Assembly: GCA_964654485.1 (NCBI GenBank)
Contig: CAZZJI010000007.1
Span: forward strand, 3,276-67,275
Length of the DNA stretch: 64,000 nucleotides
Origin: an uncultured Gammaproteobacteria bacterium
Lineage (GTDB): Bacteria; Pseudomonadota; Gammaproteobacteria; SG8-11
Direction of reading: 5' to 3'
The notes below the pieces were generated by a model. That model was not told the DNA's origin. It saw only the letters and a list, made by a program, of their open reading frames with translations, and did no database searches. This document shows, piece by piece, positions 28,634 through 39,536 of the stretch (its first letter is position 1; each line of letters begins with the position of its first letter). The translations under genes were made by a program, and so were the position numbers.

Positions 28634-30265
28634 TTATATTTTGCATTTATAGGTCAGTTCTACCGTTCCGTCTTCGTAGACGGTTTCCAGTCTGACAGTA
28701 AACCCCCATAAACGTGCGATATGTTTGGTTACTTCTGCGACTGTTTCTGCCAATGGTCGGCGGTTATATTGGTAGTGCCTTAGAGTCAGTGAACGATCGC
28801 CTTTCATATTGACATCATAAACCTGAATATCGGGTTCGTTTTGTCCAAGATTATATTGTTCCGACAAGGTTTTTTTGATGTGATGGTAGCCTTCGTCGTT
28901 GTGAATAGATGATATTTCAAGTTCAGGTTTGGTATCATCATCCAGTAATGAAAAAAGTTTAAAGTCTCGTATGATTTTGGGAGATAAATATTGTGAAATA
29001 AAACTTTCGTCTTTAAAGTTTCTCATGGCAAAATCAAGTGATTCTACCCAGTCAGTATTTGCCAGATCGGGGAAATAATTCTTGTCCTCTTCGGTAGGAT
29101 TTTCACATATACGCCTTATGTCCTTCATCATGGAAAAACCAAGCGCATAGACATTTATGCCACTGTAGAAGCGACTGTCAAATGAAGGTTGGCTCACCAC
29201 ATTTGTGTGTGATTGCAAAAATTCAATCATAAAGCCGTCAGAAAGAAATCCTTCGTCGTATAGTTGATTGAGCAATGTGTAATGCCAGAATGTTGCCCAG
29301 CCCTCATTCATAACTTGGGTTTGTCTTTGTGGATAAAAATATTGGGCAATTTTACGCACTATACGAACGAGTTCTCTTTGCCATGGTTCAAGTAAGGGCG
29401 CATTTTTTTCTATAAAGTACAAAATATTTTCTTGAGGTTCATCTGGGAAGCGTAAATCAGTTGGTTCAGCATCGTCTGATTCTTTAGTCGGTATTGTGCG
29501 CCATAATTCATTTATCTGAGATTGCAGGTACTCCTCCCGTTCTTTTTGACGGAGCATTTCTTTTTGTATCGATAGATTAGGTGGTCGTTTGTAACGATCT
29601 ACACCGTAATTCATTAAGGCGTGGCAGGAATCCAGAATTTCCTCAACTTGTTTTTCACCATAACGTTCTTCACATTTGGCCACGTAGTTCTTCGCGAATA
29701 GAAAATAATCAATAATGGCGTCGGCATTTGTCCAGGTTTTGAATAAGTAATTATTTTTAAAAAAAGAATTATGACCATAAGCAGCATGTGCGATAACCAA
29801 TGCCTGCATCATCATGGTGTTTTCTTCCATGAGGTAGGTAATGCATGGGTCAGAGTTAATCACAATTTCGTAAGCCAGCCCCATTTGACCACGTCGGTAG
29901 CGTTGCTCGGTCGCGAGAAATTGTTTTCCGAACGACCAATGAGAATAGCCTAATGGCATACCCACAGATGCATAGGCATCCATCATTTGTTCTGCAGAAA
30001 TTATTTCAATTTGAATTGGATAAGTGTCTAACTTGAATTGAGAAGCAACGCGCTCAATTTCTTTATTGTATCTATCTATTAATTCGAAAGACCACTCTGA
30101 CGTATTAGAAATTATTTTCCCTCTCTTTTTAACAGCTGTCTTTTTGGAGGTTTGTTTGGTTACTTTGCCAGATGCCTTTTTCAATACATTGTTGGATTGT
30201 TGGCCCGCCCTTTTTTTAGACGGATTGACGGTTTTCCTGTTATCTGTATCAGTTTTAGAATTCAT
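28634..30265 (-). CDS. ycgB: SpoVR/YcgB-family protein with Lys-rich N-terminal extension
   Basis: SpoVR-like body (...[17 protein letters not shown]...HWSFGKQF...). Last gene of the prkA-yeaH-ycgB triad. Start overlaps the yeaH stop by 4 nt. Confidence 0.8.
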
Positions 30266-31521
30266 GACGGTTGTTTTTTAAAAAGCTCTCTAAATACGGG
30301 ATAAATTTCAGAAATATTTTCAATACGCTGCATCGCGAAATTTTCACATGCCATTTTCACATTTAGATATTCACGCCACAGGTTTTGTGGATTATCATTT
30401 GATATTTCTATATAAGAATAATATTGTACACACGGTAATATTGAATTCGCCAACAAATCTCGACAAATTGGTGAGTCATCGTTCCAGTTGTCACCATCAG
30501 AGGCCTGTGCGGCGTATATATTCCATTCATCTGTTGGAAAGCGATCTTTAATAATTTCATGCATTAATTTTAGTGCACTGGATACAACGGTACCGCCGGT
30601 TTCTCTGGAATAGAAAAAATTTTCTTCGTCAACTTCTTTGGCAATTGTATGGTGAGAAATAAATACAATTTCTATCTTTTCGTATGTGCGTGTTAAAAAT
30701 AAATAAAGCAAGATAAAAAATCGTTTTGCGATATCTTTTTTCATTTGGTCCATTGAACCCGATATATCCATCAAACAAAACATAACAGCGTGTGTTGATG
30801 GTCGTGGTAGTTTTATTCGGTTGTTATATCTTAGGTCAAACGGGTCGATAAAGGGAATCGCAGCTATTTTTTTCTTTAGCGATTCTATTTCTTTCTTCAA
30901 TTCAAAAACTTTAGGGCGGTATTCATCAGTGACTAGCAATAGTGCAGACAATGCCTGTTCTGCTTCTTTTAATTGTCTTTTGTATGGGTTCTGTAGGGCG
31001 ATGCGTCTGGACAGCGCGCCCCGCAAAGAGCGAACAATATTAATATTTGAAGGTATACCATCTGAGCTGTGTCCCGCGCGCACGCTCTTAAATTCTTTAA
31101 TGGTCGTCAGTTTGGTTTTCACCAAATTGGGGAGCGCGAGGTCTTCAAAAAAGAATTCCAAAAACTCTTCTTTAGAGAGTTGGAATACAAAATCATCCAG
31201 ACCTTCACCGCTGTTACTCGCTTTATTTCCTTTGCCACCACCTTGTGGCGGACGGGGGATTTTATCGCCGGTAGAAAATTCTTTATTTCCAGGTAAAATA
31301 TTATCTCGACGCCCCCCCGGTCCGTGACGAAAAGTGGGTTCGGAAATATCTTTGGCAGGAATGGTAACGGATTCACCTTTCTCAACATCTGTGATGCTGC
31401 GGCCCGCGATGGCATCTGTAACGGCCCTTTTAATATTGGATTTAAAGCGCTTTAGAAATTTACGGCGGTTTACCGCGCTTTTATTTTTGCCGTTAAGCCG
31501 TCTGTCGAGTATTTGTGCCAC
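30262..31521 (-). CDS. yeaH: YeaH/DUF444 (UPF0229) family protein
   Basis: 419 aa with Gly/Arg/Pro-rich N-terminal half and conserved C-terminal VWA-like region. Sits between PrkA kinase and SpoVR as in the conserved triad. Confidence 0.8.
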
Positions 31522-31531
31522 ATCATCGCCT

Positions 31532-33460
31532 TTAAGATGATTTTCTGACTCGTAAGTACCACTCGCAAAGCAATCGGACTTGTTTTTGTGTGTAGCCTTT
31601 TTCGGTCATGCGATCGACAAAATCTTCATGTTTCTTCTGTTCATCCCCCGAGCTTTTTGCATTAAACGAGATAACCGGGAGTAAGTCTTCGGTATTTGAA
31701 AACATTTTCTTTTCAATAACCGTGCGAAGTTTTTCGTAACTTGACCATTGTGGATTTTTACCGTCATTCTGCGCACGTGCGCGTAGTACAAAATTGACTA
31801 TTTCATTTCGAAAATCCTTGGGATTGCTTATGCCCGCCGGTTTTTCTATTTTTTCCAATTCGTCATTAAGGGCTGCCCGGCTAAATATTTCACCGGTATC
31901 AGTGTCACGATAATCTTCATCCTGAATCCAGTAATCTGCATAGGTAACATATCGATCAAAGATATTCTGACCATATTCTGAATACGATTCCAGATAGGCT
32001 TTCTGAATTTCTTTGCCAATAAATTCTATATACCGTGGTGTTATAAATCCTTTGATATAGGACAGGTAACGCTCTTCAATTTCTGCTGGAAATTGCTCGC
32101 GTTCAATTTGCTGTTCCAGTACATAAAGCAGATGCACTGGGTTGGCCGCAATTTCACTGTTATCGAAGTTAAATACTTTGGATAGAATTTTAAACGCAAA
32201 TCGGGTGGATAACCCCGTCATGCCTTCATCAACGCCAGCATAATCCCGGTATTCCTGGTAGGATTTTGCATTTGGATCTGTGTCTTTCAGGTTTTCGCCG
32301 TCATATACACGCATTTTCGAAAAGATATTGGAATTTTCTGGCTCTTTCAAACGTGAAAGTGCGGCAAACTGGGCCATCATTTTAAGCGTGCCGGGTGCAC
32401 ATGGCGCGTTGGCAAGAGAACTGTTTTCAAGCAATTTGTTATAAATATTTACTTCTTCCGAACAACGAAGGCAATAGGGCACCTTAACGATATAGATACG
32501 ATCAAGGAAGGCCTCATTATTTTTATTGTTCCTGAACGATATCCATTCTGATTCATTTGAATGTGCCAGGATTAGTCCCTCGAAAGGAATCGCTGCCAAA
32601 CCTTCAGTGCCTTTGTAATTATTTTCCTGTGTTGCCGTCAGCAGCGGGTGAAGTACTTTAATGGGCGCCTTGAACATTTCAACAAATTCGAGCATGCCAC
32701 GGTTTGCCTGGCATAGACCACCGGAGAAACTGTATGCATCTGGATCATCCTGGGAAAAGTTTTCCAGCATGCGAATATCGACTTTACCGACAAGTGAGGA
32801 AATATCCTGATTGTTTTCATCACCTGGTTCCGTTTTCGAAATACCTATTTGTTCCAATACAGAAGGCCGTATTTTTACAACTTTAAATTTAGTGATATCA
32901 CCATTAAATTCGTGTAAGCGTTTTACCGCCCATGGCGACATGATGGTGTTGATGTAGCGTTTGGGTATACCGAAATCTTCTTCCAGAATCTGGGCATCTT
33001 CTTCAGGAGAGAAGAGTCCGAGTGGTGATTCGTTGATAGGAGAGCCTTTAATGGCATAAAAGGGCATTTTTTCCAGTAAAGACTTAAGTTTCTCCGCCAA
33101 TGATGATTTACCACCACCAACCGGGCCGAGTAAATACAATATCTGTTTTCTTTCTTCCAGCCCCTGGGCCGCATGTCTGAAAAAAGAAACGATTTGCTCG
33201 ATGACCTCTTCCATGCCATAGAAGTCTTTAAACGCTGGATAGATTTTTATGACTTTATTTGAAAAGAGTCTGCTTAGCCGCGGGTCGGTTTTCGTATCGA
33301 TCAGTTCAGGCGTGCCGATTGCCTCTAGCATGCGCTCTGCAGCAGTGGCATAGGCGATCGGATCTTTTTTGCATATATTCAAATATTCCTGGAGGCTAAG
33401 CTCCTCTTCCTTCGACTCTTCGTAGCGGGATGTAAAATGAGTAAATATAGACATGGTCAT
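31532..33460 (-). CDS. yeaG: PrkA-family serine protein kinase (YeaG)
   Basis: 642 aa. Walker [18 protein letters not shown]. PrkA AAA+ and C-terminal domains. Confidence 0.85.
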
Positions 33461-34356: not shown

Positions 34357-34746
34357 CTAATGCTTAAATTTATTTTTATTAAAATAAATTATTTGCGCTG
34401 TTGCATGTTGCATTGGTTTTGATATTGGTACAGCGTTCAGTTTCGGTTCCACCAGTAATTTTACCGTGGAAACCAAGCCATTATCGCCGGTGACCGCATC
34501 CCACATCATTGATGATAATTTAATGCAGGCACCCAATGGAGTACGTGCTTTTTTTCGCTCCATATCAATGCGAAATTGTAAGCCTCGTAATCGTCTTTGT
34601 TTGGAAATAGGAATACGCTCGAAAAATTGCTCAATGTAATTCTGACGGCGTTGTTCAAATCCTTCTGGATCATTACTGGCCAGATTAGCCCATTCATCGA
34701 AATCAATTCGAGTGCTTTTTTTGAAATTTTGTTTAATATTTGACAT
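34357..34746 (-). CDS. Small hypothetical protein (possibly DUF3135-like)
   Basis: 129-aa ORF with N-terminal FDEWANLASNDPEGFEQRRQ motif. Family assignment is from memory only. Confidence 0.35.
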   Translation of the reverse strand: MSNIKQNFKKSTRIDFDEWANLASNDPEGFEQRRQNYIEQFFERIPISKQRRLRGLQFRIDMERKKARTPLGACIKLSSMMWDAVTGDNGLVSTVKLLVEPKLNAVPISKPMQHATAQIIYFNKNKFKH

Positions 34747-35419: not shown

Positions 35420-35779
35420 TTATCTGTTGGTAATTAATTTTGGTTGGCTGAGTTGAAATACACCATTGTGTGCGCCGCCAATATATTCAGCACATACATT
35501 AAGGCATTCACCCACGTGAAAATTCTTAAGAGATTCAAAACAAAATCCCTCGGCAACTTTACCTACAGACGCAAATTGTGGTCCAAAGACTGGATTGATA
35601 CTTAATACTTCAAACTTGACCAGCCATTTGCGCTCATCATCGGGAGTCTGTGAACATTCCAACAGCCGGATTTCCAATTGTGACTCATTGGGTGCAACAG
35701 AAACTGAACCAAATCGTGGTGGTACTGGCCGTGGTGGTACTGGCATGGTGGAAACCTCGTGACAAAACGTATAGGACAA
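35420..35779 (-). CDS. Hypothetical protein (last gene of the protease islet; likely start at MPVPPRP...)
   Basis: 119-aa ORF, Pro-rich N-terminus, co-directional and 60 bp downstream of the M6 protease gene. Confidence 0.4.
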   Translation of the reverse strand: MSYTFCHEVSTMPVPPRPVPPRFGSVSVAPNESQLEIRLLECSQTPDDERKWLVKFEVLSINPVFGPQFASVGKVAEGFCFESLKNFHVGECLNVCAEYIGGAHNGVFQLSQPKLITNR

Positions 35780-35839
35780 CTAACTGCTCGGCATCAAATA
35801 GGGCAATGCCGAGCAGTTGATAGACCAGTATAAACTACA

Positions 35840-37405
35840 TTAGCCAAGATATACACGATATAGCGTATCGTTGTCGACATAAACAGTCACTAAATTGTTA
35901 TTTGCCCGTGCCTCACATAAGGCAGTAAAGGCATTGGTAACGCCATCAGGGTTTCCTGTTTTTATTTTTCGCCACCCTAGCCCCTGAATGTTTGCCCAAG
36001 CATTTTGAGAATGGTAACTAGTGTAGAGACGATTAACAATTTTGTTTGTATGCCACTCCTTAACCGCTGCTCCACCGACGTTAATATTGGCCGTTATATT
36101 TTCTCCCACGCGAGTAATCGCGGAAACATTGACTTCGGAGCCAGTACCATCATACGCGTTGCTGTTGGGCGTGGTCGTAGAATTAAAAGCGTTATTTCCA
36201 TTGAAAGGAAAAGTATCTCCACTGTCTCCGGAATTCGCATTACTGTTCAAGTCTCGCTTGCCATCAGCTTGTTCGATATCTACGAGGTAATGCGCTTCGT
36301 CTGTGTTATTTGATTGATTGTCATCAACATGTTCGATAATACAGCCCTCTCCTGGTAGATAAGAATCAAAACCCAGTTTTTGTCGATTCGCTACCAAAAA
36401 ATACTCTTTTGAATCTGCGCTGCCAATCGGCAATTTATAAACATCACCATTATTGAAATAAGGTTTAATATTTACACTTTGCGCACTATTGAATACCGTC
36501 GTTGAGGAAATCCAACCGGCTTTCAGTTTACACCAGGCAGACGGATGCGCTGGTGTGTGACCGTTGTTGTTCCAGCTGCCTCCGGCCATCAAATCCCATC
36601 GACCGGTACCACGTGATGAATAATCGGTGTCATACAGATCTGGCCAGCTCATTAATAAATGGCCTAGTTCATGTGACATAACACCTACCCGACCATCTTC
36701 CGGCGCCATGAAATAGCTACGTATTTGCACGCCGTTTACCGTCTTCGGCGTAATCGACCACTTGTGCGACCAAAAATCGCTTTTGTCACCCGTCGCTTCA
36801 GCGCCAGAACCAGCGGGAATGATAATCAATGCGTCTACTACACCATCACCATCATTATCGTATTGCGCAAAGTTAATATGAGGAGCAGCAAGATCAATGA
36901 CATCCTCTACCAGTTTCTGAGCGTTACGCGGGTAGTCTGCGAAACCGTAATCTTCATTGGTATAATATGATTTGGGTTGCGGTGCCCGATACCAGCCTAC
37001 AGTGACACCGCCGCTTCCGCCAACTTCGCCAACAATATCCAATTTACCGTATGAGGCTTCCCGGTAAAAGTCGTTCATGCTTCCACCAGCATAAGTTCCG
37101 CTGGAAAAGAGCATATCTCTAAAGTGTGACTGCGTTTGTGTTCCCGCCTTGTCTGAAAAATCCACCAGCAGAACCAAGGCCCTACGTGTGCCGACGATAG
37201 GGCTTAAACCCTTAGTGGGTGAGATCAGGGTATGAGCCCGAGTTTTAGGTGGACGCATCAAGATTTTCGTTGCACTTTCTCGATCGAGAACTTCGTCATC
37301 TGCTTTTTCAGGAAGTTCAAGACCAATACGTAGGCGGTGTTTTGAACGGATAATTTTCTCCTCCAATTCTGGTGAAGGAGGTGCGATACAAAGATTGTTG
37401 GACAT
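35840..37405 (-). CDS. M6-family (immune inhibitor A-like) metallopeptidase domain protein fused to an unrecognised C-terminal domain of about 75 aa
   Basis: HExxH in SHELGHLL. M6-like N-terminal block ALVLLVDFSDK. No signal peptide. The C-terminal 75 aa (YTSYHSQNAWANIQGLGWRKIKTGNPDGVTN...YRVYLG) is repeated in two nearby small ORFs. Confidence 0.7.
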   Translation of the reverse strand: MSNNLCIAPPSPELEEKIIRSKHRLRIGLELPEKADDEVLDRESATKILMRPPKTRAHTLISPTKGLSPIVGTRRALVLLVDFSDKAGTQTQSHFRDMLFSSGTYAGGSMNDFYREASYGKLDIVGEVGGSGGVTVGWYRAPQPKSYYTNEDYGFADYPRNAQKLVEDVIDLAAPHINFAQYDNDGDGVVDALIIIPAGSGAEATGDKSDFWSHKWSITPKTVNGVQIRSYFMAPEDGRVGVMSHELGHLLMSWPDLYDTDYSSRGTGRWDLMAGGSWNNNGHTPAHPSAWCKLKAGWISSTTVFNSAQSVNIKPYFNNGDVYKLPIGSADSKEYFLVANRQKLGFDSYLPGEGCIIEHVDDNQSNNTDEAHYLVDIEQADGKRDLNSNANSGDSGDTFPFNGNNAFNSTTTPNSNAYDGTGSEVNVSAITRVGENITANINVGGAAVKEWHTNKIVNRLYTSYHSQNAWANIQGLGWRKIKTGNPDGVTNAFTALCEARANNNLVTVYVDNDTLYRVYLG

Positions 37406-37488
37406 GGTTTTTTCCTCTTTTTATTGTTAGATTCGATACAAAATTCCTTGCTCTATAGGCGAAGATTCAGTTCCATTTTTGTCTTCGT

Positions 37489-37797
37489 TCAAGCGACCTC
37501 ATGAACATGGATTACCATTTTCTCAATGGATTGCGCCATGGGTACCCGGTACGCTTGCATACTAAGTAAATCACCAAGCTCTATTTTCGGATGACCAGAC
37601 AGGCTCACATGGGCACGAATGATGTAGTCCGATGCGGGATCGCGGACAACGAAGTCTATCGAAAACGATACCGATGTTTTCATGCCAGCTTGGTGGAACA
37701 CATGGTTAATTCGCAAACTAGTTAACTTTATTGAAGATCCATCCAGCATGCCAACGTCTTCCGCGTAAACATACAAAACCGCATCCGCCTGTCGCAA
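37489..37797 (-). CDS. Hypothetical small protein
   Basis: 102-aa ORF tightly packed between the disordered-protein gene and the M6 protease gene. Confidence 0.4.
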   Translation of the reverse strand: MRQADAVLYVYAEDVGMLDGSSIKLTSLRINHVFHQAGMKTSVSFSIDFVVRDPASDYIIRAHVSLSGHPKIELGDLLSMQAYRVPMAQSIEKMVIHVHEVA

Positions 37798-37800
37798 TGC

Positions 37801-38241
37801 TTACTTTTTAGTACTGCTTCGCGAGCTTGCTTTCTTAGTCGTTGGCTTTACCTCTGATTTATCTTCTAAATCAGGCGGCGGTGGTGCATCTTGCGACTGC
37901 GTTTCATCCAAACCAGGTGCCGGTACTACTATGCTACCTATGCTACCGTTCTTGATACTATGGAAAGATTCGTCGGAGAGTGGCCCAGGTGCGCTATCCA
38001 AGTTTGCTAGCGTATCTGCATTCTGCGTAACTTCTTCAGGACCTGGCGCCCCAGAAAAAGCGGCGCTTTCAGTGGCAGCCGACGACTGACCAGCCTCGGG
38101 ACCCGGTGCCGCATTAACGTCCATCTGTATACCAGAAAATGCCAAGTTATGCGGTGCGGGGGCTTCGGCCAAGTCAGCACTTGAAGTATTTTTTAAGAAC
38201 TCCCCGCCCATGGGAATTTTAATCGTGATTTCCGGGATCAT
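37801..38241 (-). CDS. Hypothetical low-complexity protein with APGPE-type repeats
   Basis: 146 aa with the motif (A/S)APGPE three times, a PPPP stretch and a Lys/Ser-rich tail. 3 nt from the next ORF. Confidence 0.45.
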   Translation of the reverse strand: MIPEITIKIPMGGEFLKNTSSADLAEAPAPHNLAFSGIQMDVNAAPGPEAGQSSAATESAAFSGAPGPEEVTQNADTLANLDSAPGPLSDESFHSIKNGSIGSIVVPAPGLDETQSQDAPPPPDLEDKSEVKPTTKKASSRSSTKK

Positions 38242-38316
38242 TTTTCATTCTCCTATAATTTATTTGATGGAACACAATGGCTGCAGTACTGCAGCCATTG
38301 ACAGCCGACATACATC

Positions 38317-38535
38317 TCAATTCATATACGCACGTTCAATAAGATTCTCGACAATATAGACACTAACGGTACGATTATTGGCTTTAGCAACGCTCAGCAA
38401 AGTAAAAGTATTGGTGACGCCATCACTGTTATCAGTTTTTATTTTTCTCCATCCAAGACCATCTATCCGCGCCCAACCATTTTGTGAATGAAAAGTTGTA
38501 TAAGTTTGAAGAACGGCTTTATTATTATTCCACAT
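38317..38535 (-). CDS. Stand-alone copy of the protease C-terminal domain (small protein; ORF opens at 38598, likely start at MWNNN)
   Basis: YTTFHSQNGWARIDGLGWRKIKTDNSDGVTNTFTLLSVAKANNRTVSVYIV aligns residue-for-residue with the C-terminus of the 35840-37405 protein. Confidence 0.55.
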   Translation of the reverse strand: MWNNNKAVLQTYTTFHSQNGWARIDGLGWRKIKTDNSDGVTNTFTLLSVAKANNRTVSVYIVENLIERAYMN

Positions 38536-38657
38536 GATAGTTTCCTCTTTTTTGTTGTTGTAAAAATTTTTTTTCATCAAGATTCGAAGGCAATCCAAAC
38601 TACGACGCTTGCTTTTACTAAAATTATTTATTTTTTATTAAATTATAACGTCTTAAT

Positions 38658-38948
38658 CTAACTTATAAATTTAATTTTATTATTTAAATAGACCCGATAA
38701 ATGCTGCTACCATTTGCAAACACATTGATGGTTCGGTTATTTGCCTTTGCCTCGCATAAAACAACAAAGGTATTGGTAACGCCATCAGAATTACCGATAT
38801 TAATTTTTATCCAACCCAAACCTTGAATTAACGCCCAGGCATTTTGCGAGTGATAAGTCGAATAAACTCGGCCAACGGTATTGTGCGCCGCTGACTGCAA
38901 CGCCCATTTCAAGGTCGTCTTGTGTTGCATCAATATCATCGCCTGCAA
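38658..38948 (-). CDS. Second stand-alone copy of the same domain (ORF overlaps the 38800-39147 ORF in another frame)
   Basis: VYSTYHSQNAWALIQGLGWIKINIGNSDGVTNTFVVLCEAKANNRTINVF...YRVYLN is a third paralogous copy of the domain. Confidence 0.5.
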   Translation of the reverse strand: MQAMILMQHKTTLKWALQSAAHNTVGRVYSTYHSQNAWALIQGLGWIKINIGNSDGVTNTFVVLCEAKANNRTINVFANGSSIYRVYLNNKIKFIS

Positions 38949-39147
38949 GCTTAGCCTGGGTGCGGCTCTTCATCTCTTCTGCGGTACCCAGTACGATATC
39001 GCCTTCGAACAAAGCAAGTCCATCAACAACTGTGTATTGTACTGGCTTATTTTTAAATGTAAGGCCAGAAACGAAACCGGTAAAAATTTCGTCGCCGGAT
39101 TGAAACTCAGTACTTTCGCTTTCGCTTTCGGTATCTTGGTTCGCCAT
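38800..39147 (-). CDS. Hypothetical acidic protein; possibly an N-terminal piece of a frameshifted gene continuing into 38658-38948
   Basis: 115-aa ORF (MANQDTESESESTEF...QYTVVDGLALFEGDIVLG...). Its 3' 149 nt overlap the domain ORF out of frame. Confidence 0.35.
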   Translation of the reverse strand: MANQDTESESESTEFQSGDEIFTGFVSGLTFKNKPVQYTVVDGLALFEGDIVLGTAEEMKSRTQAKLAGDDIDATQDDLEMGVAVSGAQYRWPSLFDLSLAKCLGVNSRFGLDKN

Positions 39148-39459: not shown

Positions 39460-39536
39460 TGGCCCGCTCGAATGGATTCGAACCATCGGCCTGCCCCTTA
39501 GGAGGGGGCTGCTCTATCCAGCTGAGCTACGAGCGG
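39460..39536 (-). tRNA. tRNA-Arg (anticodon CCU)
   Basis: Reverse complement is CCGCTCG-TA-GCTC-AGCTGGATA-GAGC-A-GCCCC-CTCCTAA-GGGGC-AGGCC-GATGG-TTCGAAT-CCATT-CGAGCGG-G-CCA. It forms a clean cloverleaf with an encoded CCA. Confidence 0.85.

Follow-up and report, generated by a model that had tools for sequence, protein, structure and literature searches.

A small OB-fold domain shared by an M6 metalloprotease and a free neighbouring protein, and its place in a protease cassette of bacteria and archaea

The locus

The 64,000-nucleotide stretch of contig CAZZJI010000007.1 considered here (the window), from an uncultured Gammaproteobacteria bacterium, carries on its minus strand a run of open reading frames (ORFs) at 35.4–39.2 kb in which one 72-residue block occurs three times: at the C-terminus of a metalloprotease of family M6 and in two small ORFs downstream of a tRNA gene. 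A preliminary description of this DNA had listed the block as an unrecognised domain, and unassigned it stays, with no match at threshold in Pfam, NCBIfam, PADLOC or the sequences of PDB. Structure prediction gives it an oligonucleotide/oligosaccharide-binding (OB) fold. Beyond what that description contained, the domain belongs to a three- to four-gene cassette found in many prokaryotes, in which proteases of five families end in this domain beside a free copy of it, and three further conserved genes lie in the cluster. The features are the following:

35420–35746, minus strand: protein of 108 residues that tracks M6 proteases, with a conserved N-terminal AAPN and, joining strands 4 and 5, a likewise conserved loop EY[IL]GG..G
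35782–35818: inverted repeat of 13 nt without mismatch and with a loop of 11 nt, in the gap that separates the M6 stop codon from the gene of the 108-residue protein
35840–37405, minus strand: M6 (InhA-like) metalloprotease of 521 residues with an intact HELGH motif and no signal peptide
35843–36055, minus strand: copy 1, the C-terminal OB domain (residues 451–521) of the M6 protein
37489–37797, minus strand: YscW/YbaY-like ORF, an accessory that tracks astacins, lacking (by alignment) the conserved N-terminal ~18 residues and the ATG
37801–38241, minus strand: disordered partner of 146 residues with the N-terminal strand MIPEITIKI, six motifs of the type [A/P]P[G/A/P]P[D/E/L] and the lysine-rich tail KKASSRSSTKK
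38275–38300: palindrome of 13+13 nt, likewise perfect, in the gap between the genes of the free OB protein and of the disordered protein
38317–38535, minus strand: copy 2, the free OB protein of 72 residues, identical to database protein P0001
38658–38876, minus strand: copy 3, the OB domain that once formed the C-terminus of a LegP-like astacin and now lies in another frame than the start of its gene
38870–39147, minus strand: N-terminal (pro-region) remnant of that astacin up to the motif QYRWP, followed by about 20 out-of-frame codons to 38800
39460–39536, minus strand: tRNA-Arg(CCT), directly upstream of the cassette and a possible integration site

Three copies of different standing

The three copies that the preliminary description had recorded are borne out by their coordinates, all on the minus strand, and by the family profile (hmmsearch), which recovers copies 1, 2 and 3 with E-values of 1.2e-35, 2e-40 and 6e-34. 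The other two copies are 56% and 58% identical to the M6 copy, slightly below the 60–65% that had been estimated by eye, and 31 columns are invariant. As had also been proposed, the copies are old paralogues with clearly diverged DNA, since the latter is just 74–77% identical over 90–121 nt. The repeat is real and ancient, and a recent duplication is excluded.

Copy 1 closes a protein that had been called M6-like, in agreement with Pfam PF05547 (E 1.8e-24; 86.9 bits, cut-off 22), NCBIfam TIGR03296 (234.4 bits, cut-off 110.8) and the HELGH motif in its catalytic domain, which is of the HExxH type. The lack of a signal peptide that had been pointed out stands as well, as no hydrophobic segment was found at the N-terminus (MSNNLCIAPPSPELEEKIIRSK...), and a type IX secretion tail was not found in the protein with Pfam. 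Throughout, L-numbers denote the related genomic loci or contigs that were compared. L006, from an uncultured gammaproteobacterium, is the closest relative with sequence in hand. Against it, the ratio of nonsynonymous to synonymous substitution rates (dN/dS) is 0.056 for the core of the M6 protein and 0.11 for its C-terminal domain.

Copy 2 is a genuine conserved gene. The ORF that ends at 38317 has its ATG at 38535, exactly at the start of the domain, and encodes a 72-residue protein beginning with MWNNNK. It is identical in four independent metagenome contigs, and its dN/dS against L006, whose free OB protein is 83% identical, is 0.12. In 9 proteobacterial loci from three classes, free proteins of about 72 residues are 68–83% identical to copy 2. 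Among 5.8 billion proteins, a word-indexed search found 58 relatives; the majority are free 72-residue proteins, from Marinobacter, Halomonas, Nitrosomonas, Coralliovum and Halioxenophilus.

Copy 3, previously taken as a stand-alone ORF, is the tail of an astacin gene that has lost its catalytic domain and not an independent gene. The ORF spans 38658–38948, has no ATG of its own, runs through a 7-codon extension (NKIKFIS) beyond the ancestral stop and overlaps a 115-residue ORF (38800–39147) in a different frame. At the same position, L006 carries an intact ORF of 446 codons from stop to stop (about 339 residues from the first ATG) that encodes an astacin of the LegP type (NCBIfam LegP NF045530, 307 bits, cut-off 300; Pfam PF01400 Astacin, E 7e-48). 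In tblastn, residues 100–195 of this protein match the 115-residue ORF of the window with 74% identity, up to QYRWP, and residues 382–446 match copy 3 with 77% identity in a reading frame that differs from that of the N-terminal match. The roughly 187 residues in between constitute the whole catalytic domain, present in the L006 orthologue and deleted in the window. The junction can be read directly from the DNA, where ...CGTTGGCC is followed by GAGTTTAT at 38870/38869, and the deletion removed about 572 nt, a length not divisible by three. The possibility that a programmed frameshift connects the 115-residue ORF with copy 3 was considered and found without evidence, the intact orthologue showing a plain deletion.

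The same deletion is present in the three independent metagenome contigs L001, L003 and L004, and L002 starts downstream of it; each of these four is at least 99.46% identical to the window, too little variation for a population dN/dS of copy 3. Run against L006, the dN/dS comparison gives 0.12 for copy 2, 0.11 for the copy 1 domain and 0.11 for copy 3 versus the intact L006 domain, but with a dS near 1.4 (1.0–1.4 against L006) the last value shows only that the loss is recent relative to the species split and says nothing on recent relaxation. The earlier idea of decayed protease paralogues cut down to their C-terminal domains thus applies to copy 3, the astacin remnant, and fails for copy 2 with its conserved family of free proteins and low dN/dS. 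Even within one locus, a small ORF resembling the terminal domain of a neighbour can be either a functional partner or a deletion remnant.

The two inverted repeats listed above are intergenic, each located just after a gene ending in an OB domain, and no T-run stands behind either. Attenuation, RNA stability through a hairpin and the binding of a protein are conceivable functions.

Fold and sequence relationships of the domain

Two Pfam families were considered for the domain and rejected. DUF7862 (PF25262) gives copy 2 a score of 14.9 bits versus a gathering cut-off of 27 and matches 5 of the 47 family members (best E 0.0075), and CNP1 matches 13 of the 47, none at threshold (best E 0.009) and inconsistently across members. 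A sequence-profile search of PDB with the domain yielded chance matches only (MAVS, AsnC; E 0.5 or worse), and NCBIfam and PADLOC were empty for the 72-residue protein, the disordered partner, a 102-residue ORF and the 108-residue protein. In a profile search over 1.84 billion representative proteins, 350 clusters (50% identity) were reached at E ≤0.001. Among the best 150 of these 350 matches, the domain either makes up a free protein of about 70–76 residues, starting from residue 1–2, or forms the extreme C-terminus of a longer protein. The family is rare, and four gene families of the cassette are without annotation, i. e. the 72-residue OB domain, the disordered partner and the two accessory families w119 and L018_93.

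A structural model of the domain, which had been recommended as a check, was computed with AlphaFold2 for the single chain from an alignment of 47 sequences. It is a confident OB fold (predicted local distance difference test, pLDDT, 94.5) with the topology β1 (2–13), β2 (20–24), β3 (28–32), helix (40–52), β4 (56–62) and β5 (65–71), in which strands 4 and 5 are connected by a two-residue turn. The nearest solved structures, with their figures, are pro-protein-glutaminase (9.5), the LT-IIb B subunit (9.4) and SilF (8.8), followed by the crystal-inclusion protein CipA (8.7), pertussis S5 (8.5), Stx2 B (8.0) and PltB, SubB, ArtB and the cholera toxin B subunit CTB (7.4–7.9). In Foldseek, B subunits of AB5 toxins fill essentially all of the top 35 places with query-normalised template modelling (TM) scores of 0.6–0.79. 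Core residues common to the free and the fused forms of the domain are W2, N19, W21, A22, G28, W29, DGVTN38–42, A50, A52 and Y70.

A cassette with exchangeable protease heads

When one genome for each of 185,579 species was scanned, 44 loci were obtained, distributed over Gamma-, Beta- and Alphaproteobacteria, Bacteroidota, Actinomycetota, Chloroflexia, Acidobacteriota and Gemmatimonadota (Longimicrobium), as well as the archaeal Methanoregulaceae and Methanotrichaceae. At least seven phyla and two families of archaea are represented in the domain family. In all 44 loci, a larger protein with the C-terminal domain is encoded beside a free copy on the same strand. The free OB gene mostly follows immediately after the protease gene, and the gap between the two is usually 3–100 nt, or the genes overlap. 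Whether the domain travels with M6 peptidases elsewhere, as had been asked, can be answered in two parts: it is linked to proteases elsewhere, but it is not bound to M6. The heads belong to five Pfam families and are distributed as follows:

Astacin (M12A): 22 loci
M6: 13 loci
Papain (C1): 7 loci
Subtilase (S8): 6 loci
Thermolysin (M4), with a protealysin-type propeptide: 2 loci
Unassigned archaeal head: 1 locus

The last of these lies in a Methanoregulaceae archaeon (L033, 391–1545) and is a 385-residue protein with a C-terminal OB domain whose head has no Pfam match and belongs to none of the five classes; it may be a sixth head type. An unusual arrangement is found in a Chloroflexia metagenome-assembled genome (L029, 5480–12721), in which the series S8-OB, free OB and partner occurs twice in tandem, followed by a third S8-OB gene. 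The second partner protein there ends in a Cys/His-rich instead of a Lys-rich tail.

The layout of the window is intact in 9 proteobacterial loci, where an astacin-OB gene is followed by a free OB gene, one or two small genes and an M6-OB gene. In L050, one of these nine, the M6 gene is followed by a second free OB gene. Marinobacter has lost the astacin, as has the window. Compared with this layout, the window holds a partly decayed cassette, with a deleted astacin head and a shortened YscW-like partner. The M6 protease, the free OB gene, the gene of the disordered protein and the M6-linked accessory gene are intact, and the cassette genes are under purifying selection (dN/dS 0.06–0.17).

Horizontal spread of the cassette is suggested by the adjoining tRNA-Arg(CCT) gene, the raised G+C content (0.457 at 36001–38000 vs about 0.40 in the flanks), flanks that differ in every genome examined and the 68–83% identity of the free OB protein across three proteobacterial classes. 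The tRNA gene and the G+C content together suggest a small horizontally acquired islet, integrated beside the tRNA gene.

Among the flanks, those of Marinobacter sp. X15-166B (L005/L007, 8268–20219) include, on the upstream side of the cassette, a gene for a sigma-54 activator and, on the downstream side, a cluster for a contractile injection system (sheath, gp19 tube, baseplate, Pvc16, AAA). The flanks at L050 (16729–20219) and L051 (12616–15827) were inspected as well. Among the loci other than Marinobacter, type VI secretion system (T6SS) genes (VasE, DotU, IcmF) in one case, a relaxase with NikA in another and housekeeping genes in others were encountered, so that no neighbour is constant. 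A contractile injection system was hence rejected as constant partner, as it lies near the cassette in Marinobacter only among the loci examined.

The disordered partner and the class-matched accessory genes

The gene that follows the free OB gene encodes a protein without match in Pfam, NCBIfam or PADLOC. Its dN/dS is 0.17, and a gene of the same architecture occupies this position in at least 35 loci, including all five protease classes and both archaeal loci; as the simple ORF caller mis-picks ORFs in actinobacterial loci of high G+C content, such counts of the disordered partner are lower bounds. The N-terminal strand alternates hydrophobic residues (MIPEITIKI, TINININ, VIVINIYLN, TVTITVD). 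Behind it comes an extended disordered region of acidic character, in which the motif [A/P]-P-[P/G/A]-P-[D/E/S] recurs (six times in the protein of the window, as many as twelve times in other loci), and then a C-terminus that is often Lys-rich.

In addition, three classes of protease are accompanied by small genes of their own, and these accessory families never occur with the wrong protease class. Chagasin (I42) was found by its own profile in 7/7 C1 loci and nowhere else, in three of them above the Pfam cut-off (54–66 bits). The family of the 108-residue protein of the window (w119) or the family L018_93 is present in 16/16 M6 loci and in no locus without M6. The YscW-like family, two members of which pass Pfam PF09619 (34.9 and 38.3 bits, cut-off 22.6), occurs in 18/23 astacin loci and otherwise only in the window, where the astacin is a remnant. 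The YscW-like ORF of the window is probably decaying together with the astacin, as judged from its missing N-terminus. In L006, the same YscW-like gene (2632–2986) appears frameshifted.

Chagasin is an established inhibitor of C1 proteases. By analogy, we infer that the proteins linked to M6 and to astacins may be cognate inhibitors as well. The 108-residue protein in particular is predicted to adopt an OB fold similar to TIMP/NTR domains, which makes it a candidate inhibitor of the M6 protease. A single-sequence search with this protein found only itself, and the further search was based on an alignment built from the loci. To our knowledge, no bacterial protein inhibitor of M6 proteases or of bacterial astacins has been reported. 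The cassette points to two possible new families of protease inhibitors, one for each of these classes.

Two observations concern variation among the accessory proteins. The N-terminus of the 108-residue protein (35700–35746, minus strand) contains a tandem PVPPR-PVPPR, and the variant of L002 (P0205, 103 residues) has a single PVPPR, i. e. a 15-nt in-frame length polymorphism within the population. Further, the chagasin of the C1 cassette in Kaistella gelatinilytica (L046, 10657–11064) has a lipoprotein-like leader (…LIIANCSSS…), whereas the chagasins of the other C1 loci are leaderless; the compartment of the inhibitor hence differs between lineages.

Comparison with known systems

Full-text literature searches, the coverage of which is limited, yielded no published description of the domain or the cassette and only analogies. 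One of these is provided by the AB5 toxins, into which proteases have been swapped as A subunits, namely the subtilase SubA and the metzincin EcxA (PMC11610972). As in SubAB and EcxAB/CfxAB, the gene of the enzyme precedes a small OB gene and the enzymatic head has been exchanged in evolution. An OB-fold subunit of about 70–100 residues is the nearest structural match of the cassette domain, in whose model the five strands and the helix between strands 3 and 4 of AB5-type OB units recur. The B ring of pertussis toxin is moreover a heteropentamer, in which subunits with an extra N-terminal domain and a C-terminal OB unit share the ring with OB-only subunits (PMC11610972). On the other hand, sequence similarity of the cassette domain to B families is not detectable. 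Sec signal peptides are missing from the OB protein and the proteases, as the free protein starts with M-W inside strand 1 and the N-termini of the M6 and astacin proteins have no hydrophobic segment. The cassette protease ends in a complete, covalently fused OB domain, whereas an AB5 A subunit is anchored via its A2 helix in the pore of the pentamer. Further differences are the disordered xPxP partner and the putative class-matched inhibitors, as well as the hosts, which are environmental bacteria and archaea and not pathogens. A pentameric ring and glycan binding are further features of AB5 toxins.

The KLIKK proteases of Tannerella forsythia belong to different classes, share a C-terminal region and are each paired with a small inhibitor. 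These potempins comprise about 100–130 residues, are encoded adjacently, and some are OB folds with loops between strands 4 and 5 (PMC9890683). Similarly, the M12A, M6, C1, S8 and M4 heads of the cassette share one C-terminal domain. The pairing with a small inhibitor is mirrored by chagasin at C1 loci and possibly by the class-specific co-occurrence at M6 and astacin loci together with the predicted TIMP/NTR-like fold; no accessory gene was found for S8 and M4. The C-terminal region of the KLIKK proteases, however, serves type IX secretion in one species. The cassette domain is unrelated to it, has an OB fold according to the model and is spread over many phyla, among them Actinomycetota and Archaea, which as far as we know lack type IX secretion. 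Potempins are outer-membrane lipoproteins encoded upstream, whereas most cassette proteins have no signal peptide, and the KLIKK system has neither a free paralogue of the shared domain nor a disordered partner.

A third analogy concerns effector-associated domains (EADs) and the Death and CARD domains, small domains that an effector, in many cases a protease, has in common with the product of a neighbouring gene; such a recurrence in adjacent genes is read as a sign of like-with-like coupling (PMC7159879). Domain-only paralogues can be building blocks or decoys in these systems. EADs differ from the cassette in that they link effectors to NTPase or vWA core proteins, none of which is present here, and in that the described EADs are not OB folds, whereas the partner in the cassette is the bare domain itself.

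The accessory genes, as opposed to the 72-residue domain, invite comparison with TIMPs and chagasins. TIMPs inhibit through their N-terminal segment. A conserved N-terminal segment is also present in the 108-residue M6-linked protein with its predicted NTR/TIMP-like OB fold; a TIMP sequence match and conserved cysteines are absent. The I42 members in C1 cassettes are genuine.

Taken together, the cassette lies outside AB5 toxins (no sequence relation, no signal peptides, no A2 helix) and outside the KLIKK system (no type IX tail, no lipoprotein inhibitors, no limitation to one species). For these reasons, and as the literature searches described above, with their limited coverage, found no description, it is rated as previously undescribed, with a mechanism that is a proposed one.

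A possible assembly module and its alternatives

The organisation of the cassette is best reconciled with a constant assembly module of fused OB domain, free OB protein and scaffold that would carry interchangeable, inhibitor-guarded proteases, a tentative reading given somewhat less than an even chance. The constant parts of the cassette are the protease with the OB domain at the extreme C-terminus, the free OB protein and the disordered xPxP(D/E) protein. The variable part is the protease head, with which a class-matched accessory travels for three classes; this accessory is a known inhibitor for the papain class, whereas those of M6 and astacin are candidates.

The OB units, fused and free, may contact each other like with like, because coupling of this kind is the usual conclusion when one domain is encoded by neighbouring genes (PMC7159879), and a ring-like assembly is conceivable since the nearest structures form rings. 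The result would be a mixed oligomer as in the B ring of pertussis toxin. Exposed-type residues are the same in the free and the fused forms (W2, N19, W21, W29, DGVTN38–42, Y70). This invariant Trp/Tyr/Asn/Asp surface of both forms might bind the proline motifs of the disordered partner, since a conserved Trp/Tyr site near a basic WRK would suit a reader of acidic proline motifs. The disordered protein could then act as a multivalent scaffold on which several OB units gather. As proteases and most accessory inhibitors are without signal peptides, the enzymes would probably be kept silent by the co-encoded inhibitors inside the producer until release or triggering. In the end, the complex could be a weapon directed at other cells, form a storage body or bring about self-digestion upon a trigger.

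Several findings weigh against this assembly module. No signal peptide was found on any inspected protease, free OB or partner protein, unlike in every known AB5 toxin, and the inspected loci have no constant secretion system nearby. The structural likeness to AB5 B subunits is one of fold, homology not being demonstrated: the Foldseek E-values of 0.035–0.3 are not significant at about 10% identity, and no Pfam toxin B family appeared among the 47 family members scanned. Actinobacterial partner proteins have few xPxP motifs, which weakens the idea of a proline reader, and no accessory gene is recognisable at S8 and M4 loci.

In a wider version, which appears rather doubtful in its full extent, the cassette would be a self-assembling protease machine common to bacteria and archaea and independent of secretion systems. 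It would consist of an OB ring or polymer, interchangeable heads, a proline-motif scaffold and class-matched inhibitors, the latter including two new families (prokaryotic TIMP/NTR-like proteins versus M6 and YscW-like proteins versus astacins), and would be used as a weapon in conflicts or for triggered self-destruction. The B subunits of AB5 toxins could have cytoplasmic relatives or precursors in these OB units, and the cassette may bear on the origin of such subunits. Five unrelated protease families on one constant module amount to a plug-and-play design of interest to protein engineers, as CipA and CTB fusions already are.

Alternatively, though this is unlikely, the free OB protein could be a decoy or regulator that competes with the C-terminal domain of the protease for the same ligand, be it the xPxP scaffold or another target, and thereby sets the recruitment or activation of the protease. 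CARD-only proteins act in this way on caspase-1. Free and fused forms share invariant surface residues and should hence bind the same thing, two proteases share a single free copy in most of the proteobacterial loci, and the perfect hairpin after the free gene would allow separate dosage. The free gene also has a possible promoter-like site of its own (10/12 match at 38669–38642); yet the promoter scan gave 7 sites versus 8.1 in shuffled sequence and hence no excess. A very tight or overlapping arrangement of protease stop and free OB start in many loci (e. g. L015, L033) rather suggests coupled, matched production. The free form is also very highly conserved from one proteobacterial class to another (68–83%), as would be expected of a structural subunit engaged in many interfaces more than of a decoy.

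Targeting of the lectin type, in which the OB domain would bind a glycan or surface ligand on prey or host and the protease would be delivered after lysis of the producer, is compatible with the assembly module but quite improbable. The nearest structures are glycan-binding B subunits, the order of a protease gene and a small B-like gene is that of subAB and ecxAB (PMC11610972), and cytoplasmic inhibitors would suit a dangerous exported enzyme. Yet signal peptides and conserved cysteines are absent, as are the residues of any known glycan site. Moreover, the cassette is found in methanogenic archaea, nitrifiers and soil actinobacteria without known host, and the role of the disordered partner would be left unexplained.

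The preliminary description had also thought of free decoy or inhibitor copies. An OB domain that masks or folds the protease like a pro-domain, with the free copy as a propeptide-like inhibitor in trans, has precedents in the OB-fold potempins and in the structural match to pro-protein-glutaminase, but it is very unlikely to apply here. As the free protein is found beside metallo-, cysteine and serine proteases alike, one nearly invariant 72-residue protein would face five mechanistically different families, a poor prospect for an active-site inhibitor. Moreover, strands 4 and 5 are joined by a two-residue turn, where potempins have long loops, and a universal inhibitor would be redundant beside the separate class-matched genes, i. 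e. genuine I42 chagasins at C1 loci and the accessory proteins at M6 and astacin loci.

Finally, there is next to no probability that both small ORFs are dead, functionless remnants of tandem protease genes, which is true of copy 3 with its frame-breaking astacin deletion, missing ATG and lost ancestral stop, but refuted for copy 2 by the ATG at the domain start, the identity in four contigs, the dN/dS of 0.12 and the presence of the free ~72-residue family in all 44 loci.

Neighbouring genes in the window

Downstream of the cassette, the minus strand of the window carries a DUF3135 gene (34357–34746) with about 0.7–0.9 kb on each side that contain no convincing ORF. Further along the same strand lie the PrkA serine kinase gene (31532–33460), a DUF444/YeaH-like gene (30262–31521), the label of which comes from Pfam on the identical contig L001, and an ORF of 543 residues (28634–30265).

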